NCBI GenBank assembly: GCA_964515005.1
Contig: CAZEVT010000003.1
Location: 12,815 to 76,814 of the forward strand
From: an uncultured Gammaproteobacteria bacterium
GTDB lineage: Bacteria > Patescibacteriota > Microgenomatia > UBA10105 > UBA927
Length of the DNA: 64,000 nucleotides
Reading direction: 5' to 3'
Both the position numbers and the translations under genes were made by a program. Under the pieces are notes generated by a model that saw only the letters and a list, made by a program, of their open reading frames with translations, was not told the origin of the DNA and did not search any database. Shown here piece after piece: positions 22,037 through 61,646 of this stretch (within the stretch, counting starts at the first letter, position 1; every line of letters starts with the position of its first letter).

Positions 22037-22087
22037 ATTTTGATCCCCAAGTATAACACAAAAGTATTCGAGGAAGAGTGAATAAGG

Positions 22088-22093
22088 TATAAT
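22088..22093 (+). promoter_or_regulatory. TATAAT -10 box 6 nt upstream of ATG 22100 (leaderless geometry)
   Basis: A perfect TATAAT in the divergent spacer between the 20981(-) and 22100(+) genes. Confidence 0.35.
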
Positions 22094-22099
22094 TAGACA

Positions 22100-22882
22100 A
22101 TGACATCCAATGATTTGACCATATTGTTTTTGTCTTGTGACAAATATTCTGATTTGTGGCGGCCCCTTCTCTACTGCTTGCGCAAATATTGGAAAAATTG
22201 TCCCTACCCGTTATACCTGGGAAGCAATACCATGCCCCTAAAAGACAAACAGATACAAACGATACTCTCCGGACCGGACACAGATTGGTCCTCAAGCCTT
22301 CAAGCAATCCTCAAACAGATAACCACACCATATGTTTTTATCTGGCTAGATGACATTTTCCCGATTAAGAGAATCCAATCACAGGATTTTGCTGAGGCGC
22401 TGGAGTTTATGAAAAAACATGATGGCAAACATATGCATATGTTGCCCTCGCCGAAACCGGACAGCAAAACATCCGATGGACAGTATGGCCTCTATGAGAA
22501 AGGCACCCCGTATAGGTGCACCGCATTGGGTTTTTGGAAAGTCTCCTATTTACAAGATTTACTAATTCATAGAGAAAACCCTTGGAATTTTGAAGTCATG
22601 GGATCGTATCGAAGCTCATATGTAGATGGTTTTTATTGCACGATGAGGCCATTATTTCAGTCGCTTCATGTGATTGAGAAAGGACGGATTTTCCGAGCCG
22701 CATATGAGTACTGCCACGCTCATTCGATACCTTTATCAATAGGGAATCGGTCAGTACTTGCCAGTGCATTTCAATTGAGAAGCGAAATTCAGAAATTTTA
22801 TTTTAACAGCGTGAAGCATATTCCTTGGAAGATCCGCGTATCTATGATGAACGTATTGCGAAAATTGCTTATTAGTTATTAA
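22100..22882 (+). CDS. Hypothetical protein, possible GT-A-like nucleotide-sugar transferase
   Basis: 260 aa, soluble, with LSCDKYSDLW and IWLDDIF (DxD-like) motifs. No confident family. Confidence 0.3.
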   Translation: MTSNDLTILFLSCDKYSDLWRPLLYCLRKYWKNCPYPLYLGSNTMPLKDKQIQTILSGPDTDWSSSLQAILKQITTPYVFIWLDDIFPIKRIQSQDFAEALEFMKKHDGKHMHMLPSPKPDSKTSDGQYGLYEKGTPYRCTALGFWKVSYLQDLLIHRENPWNFEVMGSYRSSYVDGFYCTMRPLFQSLHVIEKGRIFRAAYEYCHAHSIPLSIGNRSVLASAFQLRSEIQKFYFNSVKHIPWKIRVSMMNVLRKLLISY

Positions 22883-22903
22883 TAGTTTGTGTATAATGAC
22901 GAT

Positions 22904-23872
22904 ATGAAAAAAGCACTCGTTACCGGAGCAGGCGGCTTTATCGGTCACCATCTAGTCAAAAGGCTTGCTGGGGAAGGATTTTGGGTTCAGGGTGTTGATC
23001 TTAAAAAACCGGAGTATAGTAAATCAGGAGCAGATGAATTTATTATCGGAGATCTTCGTGACCAAAAATTTTGTCAGAAAATTTTAAACCACACATTTGA
23101 TGAAGTATATCAGCTAGCAGCCGATATGGGCGGTGCAGGCTATATATTTACCGGAGACCATGATGCGGATGTCATGCGTAATTCTGCACAGATTAATCTC
23201 AATATGCTTCATTTTGGACGACTTGTGAAGATCAAAAAAATCTTCTTTTCTTCGTCAGCATGTATTTATCCGGAGCGGAACCAGGTAGACCCAAACAACC
23301 CAAACTGTTCAGAAGAGTCAGCCTACCCTGCGGCTCCCGATAGCGAATACGGCTGGGAAAAACTCTTTGGCGAGCGCATGTTTCTCGCATACAGTCGGAA
23401 TTATGGAATGGAAGTACGTATCGCTCGCTTTCACAACATATTTGGGCCAGAAGGCAGCTGGAACAACGGTAAGGAGAAAGTGCCATCAGCAATATGCAGG
23501 AAAGTGGCCGAGGCAAAAGACGGCGGAACTATAAAGATGTGGGGGGATGGAAAACAGACAAGGTCTTTCCTCTATATAGATGAATGCCTTCATGGCGTAA
23601 GGAAGTTAATGAATAGTAAGTTTACAGGGCCTGTGAACATTGGTTCAGAAGAAATGGTTTCTATAAACGGATTAGCTAAAATGATTATGGAAATAGCAGG
23701 AAAGAAGTTGAAAATAAAACACATTCCAGGACCACAAGGGGTGAGAGGCAGAAAATCAGATAATAGATTAATTCAAGAGAAGCTTGGTTGGACGCCGACT
23801 GCGTCTTTGAAAAGCGGACTGGAAAAAACGTATATTTGGATTGATGAACAAGTTCATAAATCCGGCAAATAA
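22904..23872 (+). CDS. gme: GDP-mannose 3,5-epimerase-like SDR (GME family)
   Basis: A long collinear match to the GME signature: AADMGGAGYI, SSSACIYPE, RFHNIFGP.G.W, MWGDGKQTRSF, IDECLHG, IPGPQGVRGRKSDN, KLGW. ATG 22904 (MKKALVTGAGGF) lies 6 nt after a TATAAT box; the ORF track's GTG start at 22889 is less likely. Confidence 0.8.
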   Translation: MKKALVTGAGGFIGHHLVKRLAGEGFWVQGVDLKKPEYSKSGADEFIIGDLRDQKFCQKILNHTFDEVYQLAADMGGAGYIFTGDHDADVMRNSAQINLNMLHFGRLVKIKKIFFSSSACIYPERNQVDPNNPNCSEESAYPAAPDSEYGWEKLFGERMFLAYSRNYGMEVRIARFHNIFGPEGSWNNGKEKVPSAICRKVAEAKDGGTIKMWGDGKQTRSFLYIDECLHGVRKLMNSKFTGPVNIGSEEMVSINGLAKMIMEIAGKKLKIKHIPGPQGVRGRKSDNRLIQEKLGWTPTASLKSGLEKTYIWIDEQVHKSGK

Positions 23873-23891
23873 TTAGAAGAAGGATATTTAT

Positions 23892-24716: not shown

Positions 24717-24718
24717 TA

Positions 24719-26681: not shown

Positions 26682-26690
26682 CTGACCAGT

Positions 26691-27554
26691 CTAGCTAATT
26701 CGCGAATGCTTGTCCAGGCGCCAGAAGCTGTTATAGACTGTCTTTTTAGTTAACTTTATACCACGATGAGCCAGATAGGGCAGAAGTCCCAGCGAATGCT
26801 GTGTCTTGACGTCCTCTACCAATAAAGTAGTATTTCTCGCTTTTTGAATGAGTCGCTTGCTTCCCTGTAACACTTTGATCTCGTGACCTTCAACGTCGAG
26901 TTTAATAAAGATGTCGGATTTATCGACGTGAGGAAAATGACTTACGTAATTATCAAGCATCTCGGTTTTGATAGTTATCTTTCGTGAGGTTGGAAAACTG
27001 ACGATCATTTTTTGCGGCGGATAGTAATAGAATTTTTGTGTGGCACTTTTATTACTTAATGCCTTCCGAAACAACGTGACGTTATGGAGTCTATTTATAC
27101 GAATATTTTCCTCTAATAATGAGAAGTTTTCCGGGTCGGGTTCAAATGCGTAGATTGCCATATTTTTTGAATCTTTTCGAAATCTATTTCCAATGGTTAC
27201 GGTATATTTTCCGAATTGAGCTCCTATGTCTATAAATATTACCCGACGATTTTGCACCAGCGAATCCGAAATTCGGCGAATAAGTTCTTCAATATCTAAC
27301 CGTTCAAATGCGGGAGAAGTTACTTTTACATCCCAACAAATATCTCTGATGCGAAAATCACCGAATTTTGTCTTAAGGAGCAATTTTTTGGTAAAGTCTG
27401 ATGCAAAGTTTTTCCGGTTAATCACTAAATAGAGGTAATAGAATTCGTTTATAAGAAAACGAAACCGCGGATTTCGACACTCAAGAGGTGACAGAAGATT
27501 ATAGAAGGCTAAAGAAAAATAAAATCTTAACTTTGAAAGACCGGAAAATTGCAT
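26691..27554 (-). CDS. FkbM-family methyltransferase
   Basis: FIDIGAQFGKYT...AFEPDPENF. Confidence 0.65.
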   Translation of the reverse strand: MQFSGLSKLRFYFSLAFYNLLSPLECRNPRFRFLINEFYYLYLVINRKNFASDFTKKLLLKTKFGDFRIRDICWDVKVTSPAFERLDIEELIRRISDSLVQNRRVIFIDIGAQFGKYTVTIGNRFRKDSKNMAIYAFEPDPENFSLLEENIRINRLHNVTLFRKALSNKSATQKFYYYPPQKMIVSFPTSRKITIKTEMLDNYVSHFPHVDKSDIFIKLDVEGHEIKVLQGSKRLIQKARNTTLLVEDVKTQHSLGLLPYLAHRGIKLTKKTVYNSFWRLDKHSRIS

Positions 27555-27632
27555 ACGGTACAGTATAGCTCCTTTTGATTAGCTTTGGAAGGTAATATGA
27601 TACAATTCCTAAGACTTATTTGAAAAGGACGT

Positions 27633-28751
27633 ATGCGTAATAGAAGTATTTACATCTTCATCGGTACGACCGCTGAACTTATCAAACTTGTCCCGGTAAT
27701 CAGGGAGCTTAAAAGACGAAAGATCGTCTTTACCGTCGTTGCATCCGGGCAAAATGATATATATTTTGAAGAATTTGCTGCGGAGTTAGGTAATGTGGAA
27801 ATATCATATGCTGTAACCCCGAAGGGAAAAGAGCCTTCCCTCGTGTTTTTTTTCTTTTGGGCGGTGAGAACCTTTTTTTCACTTATAATGGGAATGAAGG
27901 GACATTTTCAGGGATTAAATAAAACGAACTCATTTTTTATTGTACATGGCGATACAGTTTCATCTCTTATAGGATCACTCGTTGCATCTATGTATGGTCT
28001 TAAACTTGTGCACATCGAGTCAGGACTTAGATCTTTCAATTTTTTGGAGCCTTTTCCTGAAGAACTGTGTCGTTACATAATCTCACGGTTAGCCGATATT
28101 CATTTTTGCCCGAATGCGTGGGCAGTAGATAATCTCAACCTCGTTAAAGGTGTAAAGGTAAATACATATGAAAATACTCTCATAGAAACGTACTGGTCCG
28201 CGCTAAAAACAGCTAGCGACCATCCACTTGTTCACCAACTTCAGAAGCAAAAAACTCCATATTTTGTACTGGTTGTCCATAGACAAGAGCATGTTTTATT
28301 CGGACAAAAGCGAACTGCAGAAGAGCTTAAGTTTGTACTGAACACGGTGCCAAAAAATATGCGATGTATATTTCTCGTTCATGATTTATCTTCGAATTTC
28401 ATCCGGTCTTTGAGTCTGGTCCTATCTCAGAAAGTAGCTGCCAACATGATCCGCGTCGGGCGATTATCGTATCTGGACTTCATGCACTTATTGCGGGGAT
28501 CAGAATTTATGATTACTGATGGCGGCAGTAATCAAGAAGAAATGTACTATATGGGTAAACCGTGTTTACTCCTCCGAGGGACAACCGAACGCGTAGAAGG
28601 GTTAGGGAAAAATGTTATGTTAAGCAAAAACAAGAAGAAAACAATTATGCAATTTTTACGCAATTATAATACGTATAAAAGACGGTCAGTAAAGTTGGAC
28701 CTGCGCCCGTCGGATATAATAGTTGACTATTTATTTAATCATGGCTCATAA
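27633..28751 (+). CDS. UDP-N-acetylglucosamine 2-epimerase-like (WecB/NeuC family)
   Basis: HGDTVSSL...HIESGLRSFN..EPFPEE matches the Epimerase_2 signature. 372 aa. Confidence 0.7.
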   Translation: MRNRSIYIFIGTTAELIKLVPVIRELKRRKIVFTVVASGQNDIYFEEFAAELGNVEISYAVTPKGKEPSLVFFFFWAVRTFFSLIMGMKGHFQGLNKTNSFFIVHGDTVSSLIGSLVASMYGLKLVHIESGLRSFNFLEPFPEELCRYIISRLADIHFCPNAWAVDNLNLVKGVKVNTYENTLIETYWSALKTASDHPLVHQLQKQKTPYFVLVVHRQEHVLFGQKRTAEELKFVLNTVPKNMRCIFLVHDLSSNFIRSLSLVLSQKVAANMIRVGRLSYLDFMHLLRGSEFMITDGGSNQEEMYYMGKPCLLLRGTTERVEGLGKNVMLSKNKKKTIMQFLRNYNTYKRRSVKLDLRPSDIIVDYLFNHGS

Positions 28752-33612: not shown

Positions 33613-36571
33613 TATGTGGAAAAAATTCATCGCGTTTTTGTACCGTAACTTTGAATACGCTTTTGTCATCATTCTTGCATTCCCACCGCTCCTTTGGTTT
33701 CGCGACGGGTATGTACTCTTAGGTCACGATGCCGGGTTCCGACTCGATTATCTCTCTCAGCTTCCCAATGTATTCTATTCTTGGAATTCTACATATAACT
33801 TCGGAATTGACTGGAGCATGTTTAAGGGATTTCTCGTAACTCAATTTCCGGAAGTTACGTTTTCCGTTCTGACAGGTTCATTTGCCGTAGGAGAAAAACT
33901 GTCTCTCATTTTCTGGTTTGCGCTTATGGGCATAGGGATGTTGACCCTGCTTCGGAGTGTATTTCCGGCACCAACATACAGATTATTTAGATTATTTTCA
34001 AGCACCTTTTACATGTATAACTTTTTTATCCTGAGCGGTTGGACTATTGGCGAACGAGCGAAATTCTCCCTCTGGGCTGCGTTGCCGATTGGACTGCTTT
34101 TGATATACAACGTATTTGTCCGCAATCATTCCGTTATCCGAAACGGAATATGTTTCGGGTTGCTGTACTTTTTCCTTAACGGCGGAGGTGTTCTGCCGTT
34201 GTATGGCGGCACCGTCGTCGTTTTGGGTCTGGCATTTGTCTACTTCACGATACTGAGATTTAGAAAAGACGGATGGAGTGCGGTATGGTTTTGTAGCAAG
34301 GTGATATCGGCTTTTGTACTTCCGTTTGTCTTGTTGAACGCCTATTATATAGTTCCAAATGTTGGACTGCTAAAAACTAGCTACGGTTCTTCTGTTGCGG
34401 CTCAAGGGGGTATAGACGGACTTATCGCATGGGAGCGGGGTATTAGCCAAAATGCGTCGTTTTTTAACGTCATTCGGCTTCAGGGGTTACCTGATTGGTC
34501 GCCAGGCGCCGCGCAGCAGTATATCCATGCTTTTCTTACTAATCCATTTTTGATTATTTTCAGTTTTATTCCCATTGTTTCTATTATTCTGGGGTTTGCA
34601 TGGATACGGTTTGCCAACAGCACAAAAGAACAGCGGTTATTGGTAATATTCCTCATTCTCCTTCTCCCGTTTGGTCTGGTGTTAACAATGGGAACGCATC
34701 CACCGACCGGAATTCTGTACGAATTTGCCATGAAAAAGATTCCAGGGTTTGTGATGCTGCGTTCCAGTTTTTATAAGTTTGCGCCGGCTTTTTGGTTTCC
34801 TATGATTGTACTTTCCGGCTATTTTTTGAATCAACTTTTACTTCGAGTAAAGAAAAGCCCAAAGGTATATCAGATTATAGGCATATGCGCAATCATTGGT
34901 CTTTTGGCCTATCATTATCCGTTTTTTACCACAGACGCATTTACACTATCCGATAATTTTTCTACCCGCGTACGAATTCCGTCATATCTGGCTGACATTA
35001 CCACTCAAGTGAAGAGTCACGTGGAGGAAAGCAGCGCGATTCTTGTCGTGCCCAAAATGGAAATGTATTTTCCTGACTTACCGGTGGATACGTATACTTG
35101 GGGCTATTTCAGCCTGGATATTTTACCCCGTAATGCAATCAACAGACGGTTTATTGCGAATGATGGGCACAACCCGATAGTTCAAAGTCTTTATAACGCG
35201 CTCTATGCAGGCGATGCAGAAGCGACAACATACCTTGCGGGAGTTCTTCGCATCGATTACATTCTTTGGCGTGGGGACGCGAGACTGAGCGTGCAAACAC
35301 AGCTATATGATTCTCCTGATATAGCCAAGACTTTACTCGATACGAATCCGGATTTTAAGCGTATATTTGAAACCGAGTCATGGAGTTTATATAAAATTAT
35401 TCGGCAAGAAGTCGAGCAAAAAATATATGCTACCACATCGGTCGCCGCGTATCGGGGATCGGACGAGGCCGCCGGATTTCTCATACAGGATAAAGAGGTT
35501 CGTGATACGCTCACATTGGCAAAAATTCAGGATACCAGTCAACTTCAGAACATGCCGTATCAACGTCTGTTCTTTGAGGCAGAATGCAGTATGTGTGTGA
35601 AAAACGAATTTCAGAGTCTTGTCGACTCAATTGCTCTACCCAATAAACGTCTGACTCCGGCGTCTCCACTGTTTATGTTTGAAACATGGCGACAAAGCCA
35701 GCTTACGAAGCGCGTAGCTAACCTACCAAACGAACGCATAGACGCAGATCTCGCATTAGCGCAAAACTTTCTCTCTTATGTGAACGCGTTGAACAGACCA
35801 GAGTATTTTGTGCAGTACCTATCATACATGAATGATGCGATGGGTACCTGGGATGGATTCAAGGGGAGAGATAGGAATACGTATGCGATTCGATTACTCG
35901 CGTATATAGAGTCCCATGTGCATGCGCTCGCATCTCTCCAGGGGATGTCCGGTGCCGATGCTGTTTCTCAACGACTTGATGAAATGACGAAGAATTTGCA
36001 GAGGAACGTCTGGATGTCCGAAGGCAGTACATACAGATACATGATTTTGCTTGATGAAGAAGGCACGTATGAGTTGGAAATGAATACAAATCCGTCTGAC
36101 GTTGTGCACATATCACTAGATGGGGTAACACATCAATTAGGTTCACCTGCACGTTTGACATCCGGTTTGCATACAATAGAGGTATCCTTGGTTGACGAGC
36201 ATGTTTGGCGGCCGTATGTGTTTTTGAAAAAATCTATCCAACGCGATTTCGGTAGTCCTCCGCACATTACCTTTACAAAATTGAATCCGACCAAATATAT
36301 CGCGCATGTGAATAACAGTTCGGATCGCCAATTTTTGTTAGTGTTTAAGGAGCAGTATGATCCCCGGTGGACGACATCCATCACGGGTGCGACACACGTC
36401 ATGGTCGATGGATTTGCGAATGGGTGGATTATCAATACACCGGGAGTATACGATGTTGAAGTGTACTATATGCCGCAGGGTTATTTTTATATTGGTCTTG
36501 TTATTACTGGAGGCACGATACTTATTATCGGAATAGCGTATGGTATGTCTATAATGAAGCGTAGAAAATAG
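33602..36571 (+). CDS. Very large membrane protein, unnamed GT-C-like family, with ~600-aa extracytoplasmic C-terminal domain
   Basis: 989 aa. N-terminal GHDAGFRLDY loop, KIPGFVMLRSSF motif, multiple TM helices, a long soluble region and a C-terminal TM anchor (GGTILIIGIAYG). Confidence 0.45.
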   Translation: MRSNMWKKFIAFLYRNFEYAFVIILAFPPLLWFRDGYVLLGHDAGFRLDYLSQLPNVFYSWNSTYNFGIDWSMFKGFLVTQFPEVTFSVLTGSFAVGEKLSLIFWFALMGIGMLTLLRSVFPAPTYRLFRLFSSTFYMYNFFILSGWTIGERAKFSLWAALPIGLLLIYNVFVRNHSVIRNGICFGLLYFFLNGGGVLPLYGGTVVVLGLAFVYFTILRFRKDGWSAVWFCSKVISAFVLPFVLLNAYYIVPNVGLLKTSYGSSVAAQGGIDGLIAWERGISQNASFFNVIRLQGLPDWSPGAAQQYIHAFLTNPFLIIFSFIPIVSIILGFAWIRFANSTKEQRLLVIFLILLLPFGLVLTMGTHPPTGILYEFAMKKIPGFVMLRSSFYKFAPAFWFPMIVLSGYFLNQLLLRVKKSPKVYQIIGICAIIGLLAYHYPFFTTDAFTLSDNFSTRVRIPSYLADITTQVKSHVEESSAILVVPKMEMYFPDLPVDTYTWGYFSLDILPRNAINRRFIANDGHNPIVQSLYNALYAGDAEATTYLAGVLRIDYILWRGDARLSVQTQLYDSPDIAKTLLDTNPDFKRIFETESWSLYKIIRQEVEQKIYATTSVAAYRGSDEAAGFLIQDKEVRDTLTLAKIQDTSQLQNMPYQRLFFEAECSMCVKNEFQSLVDSIALPNKRLTPASPLFMFETWRQSQLTKRVANLPNERIDADLALAQNFLSYVNALNRPEYFVQYLSYMNDAMGTWDGFKGRDRNTYAIRLLAYIESHVHALASLQGMSGADAVSQRLDEMTKNLQRNVWMSEGSTYRYMILLDEEGTYELEMNTNPSDVVHISLDGVTHQLGSPARLTSGLHTIEVSLVDEHVWRPYVFLKKSIQRDFGSPPHITFTKLNPTKYIAHVNNSSDRQFLLVFKEQYDPRWTTSITGATHVMVDGFANGWIINTPGVYDVEVYYMPQGYFYIGLVITGGTILIIGIAYGMSIMKRRK

Positions 36572-36580
36572 TATAACAAT

Positions 36581-38092
36581 ATGTTTCTTTGGTATTTTGC
36601 TTCAGGCGATTTGGAGTTTTTTTGGAAAGAACAGTTGCAGGTTCTTTCATGGTTGCCTCAAGTGTTTCGTGAAGACATCGGATTTGGATTTAATATGCTT
36701 CTGAGCCTGTGGCTCGACTACCCGTTCCGAATTGTATTGAAGATACTATCCGGCATGGGTTTATCCTGGTTTATTATAGAAAAATTATTGTGGCTGTCGG
36801 TTTTATTACTCGCTGTCTATTCATCCTATCTATTGGCGTCACGTATATTGGGGAAAAACGTGTTTACGTATTTGGCGCCCGTCATCTATGCCACAAACAG
36901 TTACTTCTTGCTTCTTTTCAGCGGGGGACAGTTGGGGGTTGCGTTTGCGTACGCAATCGCACCGTTTGTTCTGATGAAATTTTTGCAAGGCAAGGCTATA
37001 GCAAATGGTCTGTGGCTCGCGCTTTTGGTTGTATTCGATCTTCGTATTGCATATTTGGTTGTTGGCGCAATTGTGTTATATCTGATACTTGAGAAGAAAT
37101 TTAGCTCGTTTTATTCTTTAGGAATTTCCCTCGCGGTTGCGGCGAGTGTACATCTGTATTGGATTTTACCCACAGTGTTGGCCAGTCGCGGAACTGCAGG
37201 TTTAGGAGAGCAATTTACCAACCCCGGCATGCTCAAGTTTTTGAGTTTTGCGGATTTCTCACATACGCTCGCGCTTCTCCATCCCAACTGGCCGGAGAAT
37301 TTGTTTGGAAAGGTGTATTTCTTGCAGCCGGAGTTTTTACTCTTGCCAATCATTGCATTTTCCGCGCTTTTATTTCGTGAACAAAAAATTCGTTTCTTTG
37401 CGCTACTGGCCCTAGTGGGAGCATTTTTTTCGAAAGGAGTTCAAGAACCCCTCGGGGGGATTTTCCAGTGGATGTTTACGTATATCCCTGGGTTTGTCAT
37501 GTTCCGAGATCCTACGAAATTCTATGTATTGACTGCAATCGGGTACTCTGTACTTATTCCGTTTGCTCTAAAACGAATGAACAAAATGATACTCTATATA
37601 TGTTTTATTCTTTTTTGGATTTTTACCGTGCGAGCTATCAATGTACGGCCGGTCCAACTTCCGCAGGAATATGTGCAGTTAAAAAATCTTCTTGTTTCGG
37701 ATGCCGTGCCGTCGCGGACGTTATGGATTCCGCAAAAAGAAAACTTCGCTTATTTTTCGGACATTCACCCGATTTTGATATCAACAGCAACTGCATCCAT
37801 AGATTCGAGCGTAAAATATGTTATTGTACCGACCGACGTGAATAAACGCATTTTTTTGAATGATTACAAATTTGATCTGTCAGTTCGAACAAAGCTGATT
37901 GATGAGCTAGGATTAACTTTAAACAGAAATCCGTCCTTTCGTGATCTTGCTGTATTTGAAAATCCAGATTTTACACAGATGCAGAGCACGGTGCCAGCGA
38001 TTGCAGTCAAGCAGCAACGATTGGCAAACGTGGGGCTCTTAGCCAGCATTGTTTCACTCGTTGGCTGGATAATCGCACGAAAAGTATTATGA
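36581..38092 (+). CDS. Polytopic membrane protein, same unnamed family (short form)
   Basis: 503 aa with SGDLEFFW near the N-terminus and a YIPGFVMFRDP motif. Lacks the long C-terminal domain. Confidence 0.4.
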   Translation: MFLWYFASGDLEFFWKEQLQVLSWLPQVFREDIGFGFNMLLSLWLDYPFRIVLKILSGMGLSWFIIEKLLWLSVLLLAVYSSYLLASRILGKNVFTYLAPVIYATNSYFLLLFSGGQLGVAFAYAIAPFVLMKFLQGKAIANGLWLALLVVFDLRIAYLVVGAIVLYLILEKKFSSFYSLGISLAVAASVHLYWILPTVLASRGTAGLGEQFTNPGMLKFLSFADFSHTLALLHPNWPENLFGKVYFLQPEFLLLPIIAFSALLFREQKIRFFALLALVGAFFSKGVQEPLGGIFQWMFTYIPGFVMFRDPTKFYVLTAIGYSVLIPFALKRMNKMILYICFILFWIFTVRAINVRPVQLPQEYVQLKNLLVSDAVPSRTLWIPQKENFAYFSDIHPILISTATASIDSSVKYVIVPTDVNKRIFLNDYKFDLSVRTKLIDELGLTLNRNPSFRDLAVFENPDFTQMQSTVPAIAVKQQRLANVGLLASIVSLVGWIIARKVL

Positions 38093-39936: not shown

Positions 39937-39953
39937 TTTGATAGAATAAGATT

Positions 39954-40895
39954 ATGGACACCAAAACCGCAGTTGTGACCGGTGGAGCAGGATTTATAGG
40001 ATCACACCTTGTTGATGCTCTTCTTTTGGCAGGTCACAAGGTTATTTGTGTCGATAATCTACTGACCGGGTCAGAAGCCAATCTCCAGAAAGCGAAAAAA
40101 AATCCCAATTTTTCATTCATAAACCACGATATTATTGAGTCTCCTCCTGACGTTCCAGACGGCGTTGACTTTGTATTTCATCTGGCGTCTCCGGCCTCGC
40201 CCGTGGATTTTAAGAAACTTGCCGAAGAAATAGCACTCGTGAACTCCGTGGGATCCATCAATATGCTGAAGTTTGCCAAAGAGAAAGGCGCACGATACTT
40301 AGAAGCCTCGACGTCAGAGGTGTACGGAGACCCTAAGGAGCACCCGCAGAAGGAAACCTATTGGGGTAATGTCAACCCCAACGGTATCAGGTCCTGCTAT
40401 GATGAGTCAAAACGTTTTGCCGAGGCCATGACCATGCTATACCTCCGAAAATATGGGTTGGATGCCCGAATTGTACGGATTTTCAACACCTACGGACCGA
40501 GAATGAGGAAGGATGACGGTCGGGTGGTATCCAATTTCATCAATCAGGCCATTTCAGGAACTCCGCTGACGATCTATGGCGACGGGACGCAAACGCGTTC
40601 TTTTTGTTTTGTTTCGGATCTTGTTGACGGGCTCATGAAGGCGATGATGAGCGATCACACCAAAGGCGTCGTATTTAACTTGGGCAACCCAGAGGAGTAT
40701 CAGGTAAAAGAACTGGCAGAAAAGATAAAGACACTTACTGCTTCTTCTTCGCCCATTGAACACGGAGAACTTCCGGAAGATGACCCCACGCAGAGGAAGC
40801 CCGATATAACGAAAGCAAAAACGATACTCGGTTGGGAGCCAAAAGTTACGGTCGACCAGGGACTCAAGATGACGATTGAGTATTACAAAAAATGA
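39954..40895 (+). CDS. uxs: UDP-glucuronate decarboxylase (UDP-xylose synthase-type SDR)
   Basis: VTGGAGFIGSHL, YDESKR, and the RVVSNFI.QA..G.PLTIYGDGTQTRSF block typical of UXS/ArnA-decarboxylase enzymes. Confidence 0.9.
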   Translation: MDTKTAVVTGGAGFIGSHLVDALLLAGHKVICVDNLLTGSEANLQKAKKNPNFSFINHDIIESPPDVPDGVDFVFHLASPASPVDFKKLAEEIALVNSVGSINMLKFAKEKGARYLEASTSEVYGDPKEHPQKETYWGNVNPNGIRSCYDESKRFAEAMTMLYLRKYGLDARIVRIFNTYGPRMRKDDGRVVSNFINQAISGTPLTIYGDGTQTRSFCFVSDLVDGLMKAMMSDHTKGVVFNLGNPEEYQVKELAEKIKTLTASSSPIEHGELPEDDPTQRKPDITKAKTILGWEPKVTVDQGLKMTIEYYKK

Positions 40896-41089
40896 AGCCC
40901 CAGGACATAGGATTTTTCGTGGTATTTGTCGTACTGCTAATTGCGAAACGGCCAAAATTTCTACTAATCGCGGGACTCATTAGCTTTATACTTGCCATTC
41001 CTCTTTTTGCCACGTGGACGTTTTTTACCGCCGAGCGCCTTACTTGGTATGGTGCGGCATTCATCTTTGCTTCACTTCTGCTAAAATAA
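40892..41089 (+). CDS. Small membrane protein (2 TM)
   Basis: 65 aa, hydrophobic, lying between uxs and galE with an ATGA overlap. Confidence 0.3.
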   Translation: MKPQDIGFFVVFVVLLIAKRPKFLLIAGLISFILAIPLFATWTFFTAERLTWYGAAFIFASLLLK

Positions 41090-41093
41090 GCTC

Positions 41094-42071
41094 ATGAACG
41101 TTCTGGTGACCGGCGGGGCCGGGTATATCGGCAGCCATATGGTTCGGATGCTTAGCGCCCGCGGATTTAAGCCGATAGTTTTTGACAGCCTTGAATATGG
41201 CCACAAGGCGGCAATTCCAAAGGAGACTCCGCTTGTCGTTGGCAATGTGAAGGATAAAGCGGCTCTTGAGACTGTTTTTTCAAAAAAAAAGATCGACGCG
41301 GTCATCCATTTTGCCGGGTATCTGATGGTCGAGGAGTCAGTGCGGGACCCCATCAAATACATGAAAAACAACGTCATCTACCCGGTGACGCTTCTTAATG
41401 TCATGCGTGACCACAATGTAGACAAGATTATTTTTTCCTCGAGCGCCGCTGTGTACGGCAATCCCGAAAAAGTACCCATACCAGAAGACCACCCCAAAAA
41501 TCCTTCTAGCCCGTATGGACTCTCTAAATGGTGTTTTGAAGAGCTCCTGGGCGCGCTGAAGTTTAGGGCAATTTCTTTAAGATATTTTAATGCTTGTGGC
41601 GCGAGTCTCGATGGCGCTCATGGAGAAGACCACAGCCCGGAAACCCATATTATTCCGGTTGCAATAAGTACGGCCTTGGGCAAACAAAAAGAGTTTGCCC
41701 TGTATGGCACCGATTATCCGACCCGCGACGGGTCGTGCCTACGGGACTATATTCACATCGAGGATCTGTGCGAGGCCCATATTTTGGCGCTTGAGGCGCT
41801 TGTAAAGGGTCATGGGACGGATGTGTATAATGTGGCAACCGGGGACGGAACCACCAATAAAGAGGTTGTTGCGGCAGTTAAGAAGGCCACTGGTGTTGAT
41901 TTTCCGGTAAAAGAAGCCGCTCGTCGTCCAGGCGACCCTCATAGTTTAGTCGCAGACCCCACGAAATTCAAAAAAGAATTCGGCTGGCAGCCGAAATACT
42001 CGGATATCAATGCAATAGTCGAAACCGCCTGGCAGTGGCATAGTAAACATCCAAAAGGGTATGCCGGGTAG
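41094..42071 (+). CDS. galE: UDP-glucose 4-epimerase
   Basis: VLVTGGAGYIGSH, SSSAAVYG, the YGLSK catalytic motif, and RYFNACGA. Confidence 0.9.
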   Translation: MNVLVTGGAGYIGSHMVRMLSARGFKPIVFDSLEYGHKAAIPKETPLVVGNVKDKAALETVFSKKKIDAVIHFAGYLMVEESVRDPIKYMKNNVIYPVTLLNVMRDHNVDKIIFSSSAAVYGNPEKVPIPEDHPKNPSSPYGLSKWCFEELLGALKFRAISLRYFNACGASLDGAHGEDHSPETHIIPVAISTALGKQKEFALYGTDYPTRDGSCLRDYIHIEDLCEAHILALEALVKGHGTDVYNVATGDGTTNKEVVAAVKKATGVDFPVKEAARRPGDPHSLVADPTKFKKEFGWQPKYSDINAIVETAWQWHSKHPKGYAG

Positions 42072-55596: not shown

Positions 55597-55599
55597 CGG

Positions 55600-55628
55600 T
55601 TGACAAGAATTGGGTAATACGCGAAAAT
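55600..55628 (+). promoter_or_regulatory. Candidate promoter TTGACA-N17-GAAAAT, 6 nt before ATG 55635
   Basis: Exact -35 hexamer, a 17-nt spacer and an A/T-rich -10-like hexamer. Leaderless geometry. Confidence 0.35.
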
Positions 55629-55634
55629 AATACA

Positions 55635-57638
55635 ATGCCCGAGGAGCTCAAAAAAATAGAACTGGAGACGACGCCTCGGCCAAAGGCCGACCAGCCTCTG
55701 GCTGGTGTACCCGCTTTGAACTCCATGAACAAGAAACCATTTCCCTGGAAATTTATTTTCATTCCTTTAGGCGTCATCCTTGTTTTCCTCGTTGTGATCG
55801 GACTCATGTTGCTTCCGCTTCGCGGCGTTATGGCCAAAGCCCAAAACGTTGCGCAAACCGGTCGTATCCTTGGGGATGCCGTGAAAAGCCAGGACCTGGT
55901 GAAGGCAAAAGAAGGGCTTGCAGCGACAAGGAAAAGTCTTGAGGAGCTTCGGAGTGAGTACGGCAAAATAAAACCGCTTATGGTCGTTCCTCTTCTCGGC
56001 GCGTATATAAAAGATGGCGATCACGCAATCAAAGCAGGGTTTGCCGGACTTGATGCGGGGGACAAGGCCATCGAAGCACTCGAGCCCAATGCGGACATTC
56101 TGGGACTCAAAGGCAAAAGCACATTTGTCTCGGGGACCGCCGATGACCGGATCCAGACAGCAGTCAAAACCATGAACGCGCTCGTGCCAAAAATAAATGA
56201 AATGGCCGGAAGCATCGATACCTTACGACGCGAAATCGACGCGATAGATCCCGCGCGCTACCCCGACCACATCGGCAAGACGTCCATTCGGCCGCGCCTC
56301 GTGGGAATCAAAGAAGTCATTGAAAATGCGGCGAATTTGTTTGTGAATGCACAGCCTTTACTCGTGAATCTACCCAAACTTCTTGGCGAGCCCGATGAAA
56401 AGCGCTACCTCGTGCTTTTCCAAAACGACAAGGAACTTCGGTCAACAGGCGGATTCATCACCGCCTACGCACAGTTCCGGTTTGTACGGGGCAAAGCAAT
56501 TTTGGAAAAATCAGATGATATCTACGCGCTTGATGCCGCCAAGACCAAGAAGTTTGAAGCACCCCGGGAAATTTCCACGTTCCACAAAGGTGTCTATGAG
56601 CTCCACATCCGCGACTCAAATCTTTCGCCCGATTTCAAGACGTCCATGCTGAAGTTTGAAGAAATGTACAACACCACATCTGGTAAAGAAAAAATTGACG
56701 GTATTTGGGCGATGGACACGCATGTACTGGTCGAGGCATTGAAGATTTTAGGCCCCATGAACGTATACGGCCGCGTGTTTAGTGCAGAAATTGACAAGCG
56801 GTGCGATTGCCCCAAGGCAGTCTACGAACTTGAGGATTATTCGACGCGCCCGGTCAACTATGTGAAGACCGCGCGCAAAGATATTATCGGTGTCCTTCTT
56901 CAGACTATTTTGCAGCAGGCCTTGGGCGTTTCCCCTTCCAAGTACTGGGGACCGCTTTTCCAGATGCTCATTACGGAAATTAACGAAAAGCATGTCCTTG
57001 CATACTTCCATGATCCTGCCGCCCAGAAGGCCGCGGAAAGCTTCAATATGGCAGGTCGCATTATGGCGGCAACCGACACGGCGACGCTTTTGAAGTATGA
57101 AGAGGGCAACGGCTGGGACTATCTCCACGTCAACCACAGCAATATGAGCGGCGCTAAAGCCAATATGTTTGTATCGGAGAAAATTACCAAAGACACGACC
57201 GTAAATACCGACGGAACGGTGATCACTAAATTAACCGTCGATTATAAAAATCCCTACAAAGGAAGCGACTGCGGACTCGAGTCCGGAGGGCTCTGCCTTA
57301 ACGCGCCGCTTCGCAATTGGGTGCGGGTGTTTGCGCCAGCAGGAAGCAAGCTCGTTGAGAGTAAAGGCACTCAGTCGCCCAAAGACAGCAAAGCGACGCC
57401 CATGGAGACCTATGACTCACTGGGAAAAACTGTGTTTGAAGGGTTCCTCATCGTCAACCCATTGGGGACAGCGAAGCTTGAGCTGACGTATACGTCACCG
57501 GTTTCCCAGGTAGACGGGAAATACAAGCTCCTTATCCAGCGCCAGCCGGGATCTGACGATCAGGAGTTTATTCTCAAGCTCGGCGGTAAAGAAAGAAAGA
57601 AATTTATCCTCAAAACTGATACGGAGGTAGTATTGTAG
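55635..57638 (+). CDS. Membrane-anchored extracytoplasmic protein, possibly DUF4012-like
   Basis: N-terminal TM anchor, a 600-aa soluble domain, and an LVLFQNDKELRSTGGFI motif. The family assignment is tentative. Confidence 0.4.
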   Translation: MPEELKKIELETTPRPKADQPLAGVPALNSMNKKPFPWKFIFIPLGVILVFLVVIGLMLLPLRGVMAKAQNVAQTGRILGDAVKSQDLVKAKEGLAATRKSLEELRSEYGKIKPLMVVPLLGAYIKDGDHAIKAGFAGLDAGDKAIEALEPNADILGLKGKSTFVSGTADDRIQTAVKTMNALVPKINEMAGSIDTLRREIDAIDPARYPDHIGKTSIRPRLVGIKEVIENAANLFVNAQPLLVNLPKLLGEPDEKRYLVLFQNDKELRSTGGFITAYAQFRFVRGKAILEKSDDIYALDAAKTKKFEAPREISTFHKGVYELHIRDSNLSPDFKTSMLKFEEMYNTTSGKEKIDGIWAMDTHVLVEALKILGPMNVYGRVFSAEIDKRCDCPKAVYELEDYSTRPVNYVKTARKDIIGVLLQTILQQALGVSPSKYWGPLFQMLITEINEKHVLAYFHDPAAQKAAESFNMAGRIMAATDTATLLKYEEGNGWDYLHVNHSNMSGAKANMFVSEKITKDTTVNTDGTVITKLTVDYKNPYKGSDCGLESGGLCLNAPLRNWVRVFAPAGSKLVESKGTQSPKDSKATPMETYDSLGKTVFEGFLIVNPLGTAKLELTYTSPVSQVDGKYKLLIQRQPGSDDQEFILKLGGKERKKFILKTDTEVVL

Positions 57639-57655
57639 CCGCTAGACATACCCGC

Positions 57656-58201
57656 GTGTATACGGCGGAGGGAATAGTGCTGAAGCGAAAGAGTATTGGA
57701 GAAGCCGATCGCATGGTTTCCCTGTTTACCAAAAAGTATGGCAAGGTGAGAGTATTGGCCCGGGGCGTTCGGAAAGTAAGTAGCCGGCGCGGTCCTCACA
57801 TAGAAGTGTTCAACCACGTGATTGCCACCATCCATAAAGGTGAGCATCAGGAATCGCTTTCTGAAGTTTCCCCTCTTGGAACGTTTGAAAATATACGAGG
57901 AGATCTTACGCGCATCGCGGCGGCATATTATCTCTGCGAACTCATCGACGGGCTCCTGCCCGAAGGACAAGTACACGAGGACGTGTTTAGGCTCTTGTCG
58001 GATGCGCTCACGACTCTCGGTACGGTTGAAACAAACCGGGTCGAGGTCCTCCGTGACCGGTTTGCCGCAGCGCTTCTTCGAATGCTTGGGTTTCTTGAAA
58101 AGGGAAAAAAGCCGCCGGGGCAGGATATAAATGCCTATGTCGAACACCTTTTGGAGCGTAGGCTCAAAACCGTGCGTCTGGCTTCACAGCTTAACATTTG
58201 A
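57656..58201 (+). CDS. recO: DNA repair protein RecO (short form)
   Basis: N-terminal EGIVLKR...GEADR..SLFT...G..R OB-fold pattern. GTG start. 181 aa. Confidence 0.7.
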   Translation: MYTAEGIVLKRKSIGEADRMVSLFTKKYGKVRVLARGVRKVSSRRGPHIEVFNHVIATIHKGEHQESLSEVSPLGTFENIRGDLTRIAAAYYLCELIDGLLPEGQVHEDVFRLLSDALTTLGTVETNRVEVLRDRFAAALLRMLGFLEKGKKPPGQDINAYVEHLLERRLKTVRLASQLNI

Positions 58202-58213
58202 TACTATGTATCC

Positions 58214-59833
58214 ATGACCAACCTCGATAGTATTGTTGCCCTTGCCAAACGCCGCGGTTTTATTTACCCCGGATCAGAAATCTACGGAGGTCTTGCAAAC
58301 GCTTGGGATTATGGTCCTGTAGGGGTTGAACTGAAAAACAACATTAAAAATTTATGGTGGAAAAAATTCGTTCATGGGCGCGATGATATCGTTGGGCTCG
58401 ATGCTGCCATAATGATGAATAGAAAAGTATGGGAAGCCTCTGGTCACGTCAACAATTTTACTGATCCGTTAGTGGAATGCCTAAATTGTCATTATAGGGA
58501 TAGGGTTGATCAGATATTGCCAACAGATAAGTTGGTAAATTTTAGAAGTATTGTTTTGAGTGATATCGAAAAACAACAAAAAAAATTAAATGATAGTCTT
58601 GCCGGAATAACGAGTATTCCAAAAGTTATTGAAAGAATCGAATCAGCAACATATTTGAATGAAGCGCAAAAAAGAGAATTTATTAAATCGTTAAAAGGGG
58701 TAAAAGATGCGGAATTGAATTCCTCTGTAATTAGTAATACCCGATTGAGCAAAATAATCGAAGACGTAGGAAAGTCATTTAAATATGAGGGTGAATTAAC
58801 TCAATTTATTCTAAATACATATACGCCGTGCCCGAATTGTGAAAGGAAAAACATTTGGACACAGCCTAAAAGTTTTAATTTGATGTTTAAAACAAACATG
58901 GGACCAATTGATGACAGTTCTTCGTTAGTGTACCTTCGTCCAGAGACTGCGCAGGCTATGTTTATAGACTTTAAATCTGTTCTAGACACAACAAGAATGA
59001 CTATTCCTTTTGGAATTGCTCAAATTGGCAAAGCGTTTCGTAATGAAATAACAACAGGAAATTATATATTTAGAACAAGAGAATTTGAACAGATGGAGAT
59101 AGAATATTTTATTCCAGAACCAACAAATAAGAATGATTGGCTAGATTATTTTATCGAGTGGAAGAACGAATTTTACGAATGGTTTAAACTAATTGGTCTT
59201 GATGTAAATAAAATTAAAGAATACGACGTTCCTGAATACGAGCTTGCCCACTATTCTAAAAAGACGATTGATTTTGAATACGAATTTCCCTTTGGATTAA
59301 AAGAACTTTATGGTCTCGCCTATAGAACAAATTTTGATTTAAAAAATCATGAAAGAATGTCAGGTAATATAATGAAATATAGAGATAATCTGACTGCGGA
59401 AGAGTATTATCCTCATGTAATAGAGCCGACTTGGGGTGTAGATAGAACAGTGCTCGCAGTATTATGTGATGCTTATAGGGAAGAAGGAGAGAATGAAAAA
59501 AAACGGATATATTTAAAAATAAAACCTATCTTGGCACCATATAAGATAGCAGTCTTTCCATTAGTTCGTAACAGAGAAGATATAGTCGATAAAGCGCGAA
59601 GTGTTTATAAAAAACTAAAGCAAAAGTATAATGTGATTTGGGATGACAGAGGTAATATTGGTAAACGGTATTATTCGCAGGATGAAATTGGTACACCTTG
59701 GTGTGTTACAGTTGATCATCAGACGCTTGAGGATGATACCGTGACTATCCGCGACCGGGATACGACCGAGCAGGATCGGGTCAATATTTCCAAGCTAACG
59801 GAATATATTGACGAAAGGCTACGCAGCCTGTAA
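58214..59833 (+). CDS. glyQS: Glycine--tRNA ligase, single-chain (alpha2) type
   Basis: RRGFIYPGSEIYGGLANAWDYGP, VGLD.AI, FRNEI and the class II motifs. Includes an internal AT-rich insertion-like segment. Confidence 0.9.
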   Translation: MTNLDSIVALAKRRGFIYPGSEIYGGLANAWDYGPVGVELKNNIKNLWWKKFVHGRDDIVGLDAAIMMNRKVWEASGHVNNFTDPLVECLNCHYRDRVDQILPTDKLVNFRSIVLSDIEKQQKKLNDSLAGITSIPKVIERIESATYLNEAQKREFIKSLKGVKDAELNSSVISNTRLSKIIEDVGKSFKYEGELTQFILNTYTPCPNCERKNIWTQPKSFNLMFKTNMGPIDDSSSLVYLRPETAQAMFIDFKSVLDTTRMTIPFGIAQIGKAFRNEITTGNYIFRTREFEQMEIEYFIPEPTNKNDWLDYFIEWKNEFYEWFKLIGLDVNKIKEYDVPEYELAHYSKKTIDFEYEFPFGLKELYGLAYRTNFDLKNHERMSGNIMKYRDNLTAEEYYPHVIEPTWGVDRTVLAVLCDAYREEGENEKKRIYLKIKPILAPYKIAVFPLVRNREDIVDKARSVYKKLKQKYNVIWDDRGNIGKRYYSQDEIGTPWCVTVDHQTLEDDTVTIRDRDTTEQDRVNISKLTEYIDERLRSL

Positions 59834-59842
59834 GCTGGTTCT

Positions 59843-60495: not shown

Positions 60496-60617
60496 TGAAT
60501 TTCAGTCAGATTACAAATAACATTGCCGTTTTATACTCATTGGCATTTATCATTGTGCTTTTAATGTATATTGCCTTTTATAAAAAATCTCCTCGGCAAA
60601 AATCTGGACGGAAATAA
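60492..60617 (+). CDS. Possible 41-aa single-TM micro-protein
   Basis: ATG overlaps the upstream stop (ATGA). The ORF is MMNFSQITNNIAVLYSLAFIIVLLMYIAFYKKSPRQKSGRK. It is not in the ORF track (<60 aa). Confidence 0.2.
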   Translation: MMNFSQITNNIAVLYSLAFIIVLLMYIAFYKKSPRQKSGRK

Positions 60618-60672
60618 GACAAAGACAGTTTTCCAAATATTACTACCTGTAGGCAGTTTAGATTGATAAAAC

Positions 60673-60701
60673 TTGACAAACTAGAGCGTCAAGAGTACTA
60701 T
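60673..60701 (+). promoter_or_regulatory. Sigma70-like promoter TTGACA-N17-TACTAT
   Basis: Exact TTGACA at 60673-60678, a 17-nt spacer, and TACTAT at 60696-60701. ATG 60709 lies 7 nt downstream. Confidence 0.5.
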
Positions 60702-60708
60702 GGGCGAC

Positions 60709-61092
60709 ATGAAGCGCGAGATTGACCTAACGCAGCAAACGTTTTTTAAATCCCGTTTACCCCAAGAAGGACCTCTGTCTGGTGTTAGGTCATATCATTC
60801 CGGAGTGTTTCAGCAAGAAAGTTTGCCAGAATTTGGAATACTTGTTGTAGAAAAAGCAGAGAGGAATTATTTCAAGAAAAAGGTAAAAACTATTCCAGTA
60901 ACTGACATCACTGATCCTGATACTCAGGTATGGTTAACAGGATCGCCTAAAGCACTATCAGTGAAGCTAGCGGAGCCACCTGCCGGATTTGTTCAGGATA
61001 CAGAAGGAGCGAGAATTGCGTTGGAAAAAGGTGGGTTTCTAGAAGAACAGCCAGCGCTTCTTGTAGTTCCTGACAAAAAATTCGACTACTAA
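60709..61092 (+). CDS. Hypothetical soluble protein (probably leaderless; track ORF starts at 60700)
   Basis: A TTGACA-N17-TACTAT promoter overlaps the 60700 ATG. The in-frame ATG at 60709 sits 7 nt after the -10 box, so 60709 is the preferred start. Confidence 0.35.
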   Translation: MKREIDLTQQTFFKSRLPQEGPLSGVRSYHSGVFQQESLPEFGILVVEKAERNYFKKKVKTIPVTDITDPDTQVWLTGSPKALSVKLAEPPAGFVQDTEGARIALEKGGFLEEQPALLVVPDKKFDY

Positions 61093-61172
61093 ATCGCTAA
61101 TTTTCTCCCTAACTCTACAGGTAGCGTATATTTTACCCTCATAACTCAACCTGTTATTTCGTGAAATACCCC

Positions 61173-61235
61173 TTGACATTCCGTGAAAAATGGGTGACTA
61201 TGGATATGGATGGGAAGATATGGTAGAGTTAGGGA
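61173..61235 (+). promoter_or_regulatory. mraZ promoter region with 10-bp-phased TGG(G/A/T) direct repeats (putative MraZ operator)
   Basis: TTGACA at 61173-61178. TGGG/TGGA/TGGG/TGGT/AGGG begin at 61191, 61201, 61211, 61221 and 61231. TAGAGT sits 6 nt before the mraZ ATG. Confidence 0.5.
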
Positions 61236-61646
61236 ATGAAGTTGTTCCTTGGTGAATACGATCATGCACTGGACGATCGGGGCCGTATAACGCTCCCGAG
61301 AAAGATTCGGCAAGAGTTAGGAGACGAAAGGGAATTGGTACTTGCGCGCGGGTTTGATACATGCATTTTTGGGTTTGACCGGTCCAGTTGGGAACGAGAA
61401 GCGGGAAAGCACCTTGAAACACCGGTGACCGATGAAAAAGGAAGGAGTTTGCGCCGCTATCTGTTTTCAGGGGCGCAAAAAGCGGACATAGACAAGCTTG
61501 GTCGTATTCTTTTGCCTGCCCAGCTCAAGGAATATGCTTCGATTTCCCGTAATGTAGCAATCATAGGCGCCGGAGACCATTTTGAGATTTGGGACAAGAA
61601 GAAATGGGACACATATGAAGCCACACATACCGGTTCTCCTGCGTGA
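61236..61646 (+). CDS. mraZ: Transcriptional regulator MraZ
   Basis: Two DxxGR-type half-domain motifs (LDDRGRITLP and IDKLGRILLP), 136 aa, at the head of rsmH-ftsL-ftsI. Confidence 0.9.
   Translation: MKLFLGEYDHALDDRGRITLPRKIRQELGDERELVLARGFDTCIFGFDRSSWEREAGKHLETPVTDEKGRSLRRYLFSGAQKADIDKLGRILLPAQLKEYASISRNVAIIGAGDHFEIWDKKKWDTYEATHTGSPA

Follow-up and report, generated by a model that had tools for sequence, protein, structure and literature searches.

Extended -10 promoters of the sigma-70 type (TGnTATAAT) are familiar from E. coli and Gram-positive bacteria, in which a TG lies one base upstream of the hexamer and the -35 element is dispensable. The leaderless genes of bacteria carry a Pribnow box located 6-8 nt from the start of promoter-proximal genes, and Shine-Dalgarno (SD) sequences are used elsewhere (PMC6028130). 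In the GeneMarkS-2 survey this arrangement is termed 'group C', and its main homes are the Actinobacteria and Deinococcus-Thermus (PMC6028130). A search for leaderless genes in Patescibacteria, CPR or Saccharibacteria recovered no description in the searchable literature, but only mentions in reference lists. A data set of transcription start sites (TSS) reportedly exists for Nanosynbacter lyticus.

The DNA analysed here is a stretch of 64,000 nucleotides, which we call the window. There are about 60 genes in it, nearly all of them on the plus strand. Long operons for glycosyltransferases, sugar epimerases and membrane proteins are followed by recO, by a gene resembling that for glycyl-tRNA synthetase (glyS), and then by the start of the dcw cluster (mraZ, rsmH, ftsL and ftsI). 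ATGA overlaps between stop and start codons occur at 17 gene junctions. To judge from the DUF4012 protein of the window, whose homologs at 70-75% identity are labelled Candidatus Gottesmanbacteria or Patescibacteria group by their sources, the host is an uncultured Gottesmanbacteria-like member of the CPR. Proteins identical to those of the window occur on contigs from JGI sample 3300010391. Scans of the window for tRNA genes and for Rfam families returned no match to either, and therefore its intergenic regions are not explained by an RNA gene.

An earlier note on this DNA had described eight genes at which a -10-like hexamer stands a fixed 6 or 7 nt before an ATG, and had proposed that these genes lead their loci and give rise to leaderless mRNAs. 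Our analysis makes it quite probable that the hexamers are sigma-70 -10 elements set so that transcription would start at the A of the ATG, or within one base of it, to yield leaderless mRNAs. The sites that bear on this proposal are given below, with the eight original sites first.

60673..60711, plus strand: promoter of gene 60709; TTGACA at 60673-60678, 17 nt, TACTAT at 60696-60701, 7 nt, ATG; 10 of 12 consensus matches.
61221..61238, plus strand: proximal extended -10 of mraZ (P2); TGG, TAGAGT at 61224-61229, 6 nt, ATG at 61236.
58199..58216, plus strand: extended -10 of the glycyl-tRNA synthetase-like gene (glyS); TGA, TACTAT at 58202-58207, 6 nt, ATG at 58214; the TGA is the stop codon of recO.
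55600..55637, plus strand: promoter of the DUF4012 gene; TTGACA at 55600-55605, 17 nt, GAAAAT at 55623-55628, 6 nt, ATG at 55635; 10 of 12 consensus matches.
22088..22102, plus strand: -10 of gene 22100; TATAAT, 6 nt, ATG at 22100; the product has 260 aa and no assigned function.
22892..22906, plus strand: -10 of an NAD-dependent epimerase gene; TATAAT, 6 nt, ATG at 22904; within a 21-nt gap.
39939..39956, plus strand: extended -10 of an epimerase/dehydratase gene; TGA, TAGAAT at 39942-39947, 6 nt, ATG at 39954.
41079..41096, plus strand: extended -10 of a GalE-like epimerase gene; TGC, TAAAAT at 41082-41087, 6 nt, ATG at 41094.
27562..27590, minus strand: a promoter absent from the earlier note; TTCCAA at 27585-27590, 17 nt, TATACT at 27562-27567, 7 nt, ATG at 27554.
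26688..26716, minus strand: a weak candidate, likewise newly listed; TGGACA, 17 nt, TAGACT, 6 nt, ATG at 26681; the TAG is the upstream stop codon.
36569..36583, plus strand: a weak-to-moderate candidate, likewise newly listed; TAGTAT, 6 nt, ATG at 36581; the TAG is the upstream stop codon.
22050..22058, minus strand: extended -10 of gene 22036; TGT, TATACT (TGTTATACT), 13 nt before the ATG at 22036; predicted leader of about 6-7 nt, no SD.
27598..27635, plus strand: contrast case with a leader, gene 27633; TGA, TACAAT at 27598-27606 (TGATACAAT), 26 nt, ATG; AAGGA lies 4 nt before the ATG.

The positions given for the eight original sites are right, including the TTGACA-N17-TACTAT-7 nt-ATG arrangement at 60709, with the exception that the hexamer at 55623-55628 reads GAAAAT and is not a TAnnnT match; the TTGACA-N17 ahead of it is real. 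Each of the eight genes starts with ATG, the stretch between the -10 and the ATG leaves no room for an SD, and none of the eight (0/8) has a properly spaced one (4-12 nt), just as had been said. The description of these genes as locus-leading holds only for 22100, 60709 and 61236, which follow real intergenic regions. The remaining five lie a short distance behind a gene on the same strand: 21 nt for 22904, 17 nt for 39954, 4 nt for 41094, 38 nt for 55635 and 12 nt for 58214.

Several of the sites have features of their own. In a divergent intergenic region of 63 nt, the hexamer of gene 22100 makes up the plus-strand half. Gene 60709 (60709-61092) encodes a product of 127 aa with no Pfam match. 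What looks like a 198-nt gap before 41094 is occupied by a small ORF (40892-41089) that encodes a hydrophobic product of 65 aa and overlaps the upstream stop codon via ATGA, and the first base of its TAA stop is the final T of the 41094 hexamer. Three other matches were dropped as candidates, namely 62304 (TACAAT at a gap of 7), since the ftsL start in relatives corresponds to about 62403; 59843 (TAAGCT, its TA supplied by a stop codon), since its orthologs carry a GGGAGG SD; and 2905 (TATGTT), which belongs to an overlapping gene.

To count the arrangement, 57 gene starts of the window were compiled and TAnnnT was scored at all gaps of 0 to 39 nt upstream of the start codon. There are ten starts with the hexamer at a gap of exactly 6 nt and three at a gap of 7, and each of the remaining gaps has between 0 and 4. 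Among all 2217 ATGs of the window on both strands, TAnnnT occurs at gap 6 in 36, or 1.6%, against which 10/57 has a binomial p of 2.7e-8. Removal of 22904, whose start had been picked to fit the pattern, leaves p = 3.5e-7. If one overlapping gene is left out as well, together with the three matches (minus-strand 26681, 36581 and 59843) whose TA belongs to the stop codon of an upstream gene, the count falls to a conservative 6/57, for which p is still 3.3e-4. The recurrence of a -10-like hexamer at gap 6 is real and well above chance. The earlier note had named enrichment over an AT-rich background as a check on its proposal, and that background is exceeded by a peak at one offset. A generic promoter-consensus scan of 55000-62000 found 11 sites versus 11.1 in shuffled sequence; since this is no excess, the scan is uninformative on its own.

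The hexamers keep company with other promoter elements. An extended -10 TGn is present at four of the eight original sites (39954, 41094, 58214 and 61236; 6.5% expected per site, p = 0.001), and a perfect TTGACA-N17 is present at two (55635 and 60709). The sites at 22100 and 22904 have neither TGn nor TTGACA, but both have a perfect TATAAT. The motif also follows gene arrangement. When it is defined by at least four of six matches to TATAAT, A at position 2, T at position 6 and a gap of 6-7 nt, it precedes 11 of the 25 window genes that do not overlap their upstream neighbour versus 3 of the 36 that do (Fisher p = 0.0017). These features support the reading that the hexamers would act as sigma-70-type DNA promoter elements rather than as RNA-level signals. 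Candidate leaderless ORFs did not differ from other genes in the folding energy of their first 30 nt (p = 0.22), and 41094 is rather structured over that stretch, at -8.6 kcal/mol.

For mraZ, 52 distinct upstream sequences were obtained from relatives whose MraZ is 60-95% identical. Two further features upstream of this gene enter the comparison.

61173..61201, plus strand: distal promoter of mraZ (P1); TTGACA, 17 nt, GACTAT; predicted TSS near 61208, with a leader of about 28 nt.
61191..61235, plus strand: candidate MraZ-box repeats; five TGGnn units with an exact 10-nt period, at 61191, 61201, 61211, 61221 and 61231.

At P2, none of the 52 unique relatives departs from TGGTAGAGT in the TG, the TA or the final T, and the gap is always 6 nt without any indel. 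The middle three nucleotides of the hexamer occur in 10 forms and the 6-nt spacer in 28 forms. At P1, the position of TTGACA is fixed in 51 of the 51 relatives whose sequences reach that far, and the -10 holds to the form nAnTAT. Thus P1, as a predicted promoter that is equally conserved and located 35 nt further upstream, is a competitor of the leaderless reading for mraZ. The five TGGnn repeats, which overlap both P1 and P2 and are conserved in relatives, resemble an operator built of MraZ boxes; PMC8475190 mentions such boxes ahead of the dcw cluster. The fourth repeat, TGGTA, provides both the TG and the TA of the P2 -10, and because of this the conservation of TGGTA may partly reflect the operator. 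The repeats give no explanation for the invariant T at position 6 of the P2 hexamer.

There are at least 12 relatives with TG(A/G/C)TA(C/G)(A/T)AT-N6-ATG in front of glyS, with at least nine different spacers among them, and the motif is retained even in relatives where the TG lies outside the recO stop codon. At a greater phylogenetic distance, relatives carry an AGGAGG SD in place of the motif. Relatives of the DUF4012 gene (55635), which have the N-terminus MPEELKKIEL in common, carry TTGACA-17-GAAAAT-7-ATG in locus L162, TTGACA-17-AACAAT-7-ATG in L164 and TATAAT-6-ATG in L165. Gene 60709 is accessory and is absent from L162, which is the closest relative; locus L094 has two paralogs of it, both with TTGACA-N17/18-TA(C/G)TAT-N7-ATG and with differing spacers. 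Orthologs of gene 22904 with 86-87% identity are preceded by TATAAT-7-ATG in L175 and by TAAAAT-7-ATG in L177. Their spacers have otherwise diverged, and in L177 the motif resides inside the 3' end of the upstream gene. For gene 27554 on the minus strand, L175 keeps TTCCAA-16-TATACT-7-ATG and the SD-like AGGAG of the window is lost there. Outside the listed sites, 10 of the 16 His_Phos_1 genes that adjoin mraZ in relatives are preceded by TATAAT-N6-ATG. Positions 2 (A) and 6 (T) of the hexamer and the spacing are therefore conserved while neighbouring bases vary at mraZ, glyS, DUF4012, 60709, 22904, 27554 and His_Phos_1.

Other comparisons show where the motif gives way to something else. Homologs of gene 22100 have 255-266 aa and the same N-terminus, and where its orthologs are internal, overlapping genes they have an SD (AGGA or GGGAGG) in place of the -10. 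Only 5 of 30 ftsI orthologs have the motif, so it is gene-specific. The candidate at 26681 on the minus strand is not conserved in L175. The loci from relatives that were used here yielded no ortholog for 39954, 41094 or 36581, and look-ups of the exact sequence returned only a contig from the same sample for 39954 and nothing for 41094. The same promoter type also precedes the predicted short leaders of genes 27633 and 22036. In front of gene 27633, TGnTACAAT is kept at 24 nt from the ATG in L172 and at 15 nt in L175, and the SD is not kept. In front of gene 22036, L175 keeps TGCTATACT, followed by 14 nt and ATG.

A search based on relatives of glyS gave 80 genomic loci, 52 of which are from CPR. 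Genes were called in these loci by a crude ORF rule in which the first ATG is the start and the motif is ignored. Among the 619 genes of the 52 CPR loci, TAnnnT occurs at gap 6 in 85 and at other gaps in about 22 (2.3% for all ATGs; p ~3e-39). The peak persists when cases that overlap a stop codon are taken out (62/489). There is no peak in the non-CPR loci (6/187 at gap 6), and in loci from Actinomycetota, which served as the positive control, there are 3 of 122 starts at gap 6 versus 0 at each of the other gaps from 0 to 10. The 85 motif-bearing CPR genes more often have T at -15 (0.69 versus 0.38) and G at -14 (0.49 versus 0.15), as befits an extended -10, and TT at -35/-34 is weakly enriched. 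In the pooled CPR loci the motif is equally common in gaps of 1-60 nt and in long gaps, and it precedes 9 of the 15 genes that have a 4-nt-gap arrangement like that at 41094. Across the same CPR genes there is also an ordinary SD peak, located 4-8 nt ahead of the start, and orthologs of 59843 have a textbook GGGAGG. SD-dependent initiation is therefore intact in the lineage, within a mixed regime. What is observed directly is the motif with its exact position, enrichment, partner elements, conservation and presence across CPR loci. As for the wider reading, we lean slightly towards the view that extended -10 promoters abutting the ATG make leaderless expression a major phylum-wide mode in CPR (Patescibacteria). 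If that is true, the mode would account for roughly 10% of all genes and roughly 40% of non-overlapping starts in this lineage, and orthologs would switch freely among leaderless, SD-led and overlap-coupled initiation. Promoters would then frequently be nested in the stop codon or final codons of the gene ahead of them.

What we infer from these patterns is that such promoters fire, that the 5' ends of their transcripts coincide with the A of the ATG and that these transcripts are translated. RNA polymerase would recognize TGnTAnnnT or TTGACA-N17-TAnnnT and melt the -10 region, and transcription would begin 7-8 nt downstream of the hexamer, which is where the A of the ATG is located. The resulting transcript would have neither a 5' leader nor an SD, and ribosomes would initiate directly on its 5'-terminal AUG. 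Initiation would thus take three forms: many non-overlapping starts would be leaderless, a minority of genes would be SD-led, and within long operons there would be ATGA-type coupling. The mixed leaderless and SD regime put forward in the earlier note, with the -10 placed for a start at the ATG, is supported as far as sequence analysis reaches.

Other explanations for the spacing were weighed against this one. A case for chance, by which A+T-rich intergenic sequence, stop codons and selectively chosen starts would together produce the pattern, could be made from the three of ten window matches that take their TA from a stop codon, from the two starts that had been picked to fit, and from the consensus scan of 55000-62000 (11 versus 11.1). 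Such an origin would have to produce a peak confined to one offset that remains at p = 3e-4 in the conservative count of 6/57, that recurs in independent loci whose starts were called blind to the motif, that survives removal of stop-codon overlaps and that is conserved in orthologs. The offset profile, the control with all ATGs and the removal of stop overlaps led us to reject it, and we consider it hardly credible. Alternatively, TAnnnT-N6-AUG could be an RNA-level element for non-SD ribosome binding or enhancement (A/U-rich, of the S1 type or the GeneMarkS-2 'group B'). The low use of SD in the window would suit an element of this kind, as would the location of the motif, which can fall in a very short gap between same-strand genes and now and then within the 3' end of the upstream one (L177 and the class with 4-nt gaps). 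A translational signal is not expected to bring along TG at -15/-14 or TTGACA at 17 nt, however, and the invariant bases, A at position 2 and T at position 6, are key -10 contacts rather than a sign of general A/U richness. Moreover, group B motifs precede all genes, internal ones included (PMC6028130), whereas the motif described here is nearly absent at overlapping internal genes (3/36) and in front of most ftsI orthologs (5/30 with the motif). The co-occurrence with TGn and -35 elements and the rarity at overlapping internal genes are the grounds on which this explanation, which seems to us very improbable, was rejected.

It could also be that the promoters are real and that expression is mainly leadered or polycistronic, with leaderless transcripts as a minor by-product. 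In that case mraZ would be expressed from P1 with a leader of about 28 nt, and 22904, 39954, 41094 and 58214 would be expressed via read-through mRNA by SD-independent initiation or re-initiation. This arrangement agrees with the invariance of mraZ P1 (51/51 relatives) and with the location of five sites only 4-38 nt behind a same-strand gene, and a search of 55000-62000 found no terminator-like site on the plus strand. Most window genes are without an SD, which means that SD-independent initiation on leadered RNA must exist here, and genes 27633 and 22036 exhibit the same promoter type with short leaders. However, the exact 6-nt spacing is then left unexplained unless a TSS at the ATG matters. 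The promoter for a leadered message could sit anywhere, and at 27633 the distance does vary, from 15 to 26 nt, whereas glyS, mraZ and His_Phos_1 hold exactly 6 nt while the spacer sequence drifts. A predominantly leadered origin of expression therefore strikes us as unlikely. Read-through operon mRNA may nevertheless contribute to, or even dominate, the expression of the five sites located 4-38 nt behind a same-strand gene, and because five of the eight sites are so placed, these internal promoters are possibly minor.

The leaderless reading has consequences for the choice of start codons. The earlier note had preferred 60709 over 60700 and 22904 over 22889, and both choices agree with independent evidence: the two L094 paralogs begin with MKRE and have no equivalent of ATG 60700, and the product in the source annotation, of 322 aa, begins at 22904, as do the orthologs of 86-87% identity at the equivalent position. 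Its examples of SD-type starts fared less evenly, in that 23892 and 27633 are reasonable and 31998 (TTG) is doubtful because an ATG at 32016 makes the ATGA overlap that is typical of the window. TTG 31998 is probably a mis-start. The genes with the -10/ATG arrangement are just those at which automated callers have erred: in L162 the start of the DUF4012 gene was put at a TTG within its own -35 box, and the source annotation cut gene 22100 to 216 aa, in contrast to the 255-266 aa and the conserved N-terminus of its homologs. For this reason the -10/ATG geometry is of practical value for the annotation of gene starts in CPR metagenome-assembled genomes. In addition, TGnTAnAAT placed 6 nt before an ATG would constitute a minimal expression signal for the emerging genetics of Patescibacteria. 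For the evolution of translation initiation, the pattern suggests that bacteria with reduced genomes and ribosomes may widely use leaderless initiation.

The mraZ region is also comparable to systems described elsewhere. The TGGnn repeats of the window, with their 10-nt period, are like the TGGGN-N5 repeats that are said to have been described for E. coli MraZ by Eraso et al. 2014. As at Pmra of E. coli and the Mollicutes, mraZ is the first gene of the dcw cluster, a canonical promoter is present, and direct repeats are located between promoter and ATG (PMC8475190). The region differs from the known Pmra in that there are five repeats rather than three, in that they run right up to the ATG, and in that the fourth repeat doubles as an extended -10 located 6 nt from the ATG.

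The likeness to extended -10 sigma-70 promoters lies in the placement of the TG and in the invariant A at position 2 and T at position 6. The difference from the usual members of that class is that here the element appears to be set so that +1 falls on the start codon. With the GeneMarkS-2 group C genomes (M. tuberculosis, Streptomyces and D. deserti), the window shares a Pribnow-type box 6-8 nt upstream, the absence of an SD at such genes and a dual model of gene starts. It departs from them in several respects. Its lineage is Gottesmanbacteria-like CPR with 45% G+C, outside the phyla listed for group C, and its leaderless architecture is predicted from sequence. The extended -10 TGn is prominent here and the -35 is mostly weak, and many promoters lie in gaps of 4-25 nt and partly occupy the 3' end or stop codon of the gene before. 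The mechanism is already known and is modelled by gene finders, and the findings from the window leave it unchanged. What is new is the taxonomic range, which is extended to a lineage apparently without a prior description of leaderless genes.

The glyS-like gene at 58214-59833 is a mosaic in comparison with its counterpart in L162, the locus of the closest relative, and this is especially so at 58447-59639. Its promoter and N-terminal 26 residues match those of L162, and beyond residue 26 the protein is only 47% identical and the DNA cannot be aligned. The gene body also carries an insertion of about 120 amino acids relative to L162, and its G+C content is low (38.5%). Together, these features suggest that the body of the gene was replaced through recombination with a foreign homolog. 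In two other relatives, L134 (near 4000) and L164 (near 12712), a G+C-rich hairpin followed by a T-run, resembling a terminator, is located immediately 5' of the glyS ATG, and no recognisable promoter or Shine-Dalgarno sequence (SD) lies between this element and the ATG.

The gene that follows, 59843, has orthologs in relatives with a textbook GGGAGG SD located 5-6 nt upstream of the ATG. In the window (region 59780-59845), the altered 3' end of glyS displaces the SD remnant, GAAAGG, to 24 nt from the ATG, so that 59843 lacks both an SD and a good -10 box.

The segment 60171-61182 is missing from L162 and looks like an accessory cassette. It includes two small ORFs as well as gene 60709, which has a promoter of its own. 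Members of the 60709 family were found in only one of about 60 relatives, L094, which has two tandem paralogs. The features of this segment and of the adjoining region upstream of mraZ (61236) are as follows.

60301-60495: hydrophobic ORF of 64 aa, overlapping the next
60492-60617: hydrophobic ORF of 41 aa
60672-60693: palindrome CTTGAC-N10-GTCAAG, covering the -35 box and spacer of the 60709 promoter
61191-61235, plus strand: five direct TGGnn repeats (TGGGT, TGGAT, TGGGA, TGGTA, aGGGA) with a period of exactly 10 nt

The palindrome, which was also picked up by a terminator scan on the minus strand, could be a repressor site. The TGGnn repeats are located between the distal mraZ promoter and the mraZ ATG, and repeats of this 10-nt period are retained upstream of mraZ in 52 relatives. 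They look like a candidate MraZ autoregulatory operator, which would span both candidate mraZ -10 boxes.

A lower G+C content (37-42% versus 44-51% elsewhere) distinguishes the region from about 20000 to 32000, wherein every minus-strand gene of the window is found. This region resembles a variable island, made up of sugar-modification genes and set within the glycan locus. GT4-type glycosyltransferases at 42209-43845 and 51730-52775 have their N- and C-domains encoded on separate ORFs, with an ATGA overlap linking one to the other. L162 and L165 share this split, which rules out a frameshift error and indicates that the arrangement is conserved.

Automated gene calls in public records misplace starts at these promoters (L162 4548, L094 1679, L174 1329 and L175 9355). 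In L162 and L094, the TTG of the TTGACA -35 box is annotated as the start codon, and orthologs of gene 22100 are shortened to 216 aa in L174 and 207 aa in L175.

The apparent 198-nt intergenic region upstream of gene 41094 is occupied by another small ORF, which ends 4 nt before the ATG.

40892-41089: hydrophobic ORF of 65 aa, whose start codon overlaps the stop codon of gene 39954-40895 (ATGA)

Among same-strand gene pairs exactly 4 nt apart in the pooled CPR loci L008-L077, nine of the 15 downstream genes carry a TAnnnT hexamer 6 nt before the start codon. The last T of the hexamer doubles as the T of the upstream stop codon, such that the -10 box is nested within the final codons of the gene before it, and this arrangement is the same as that at 41094.
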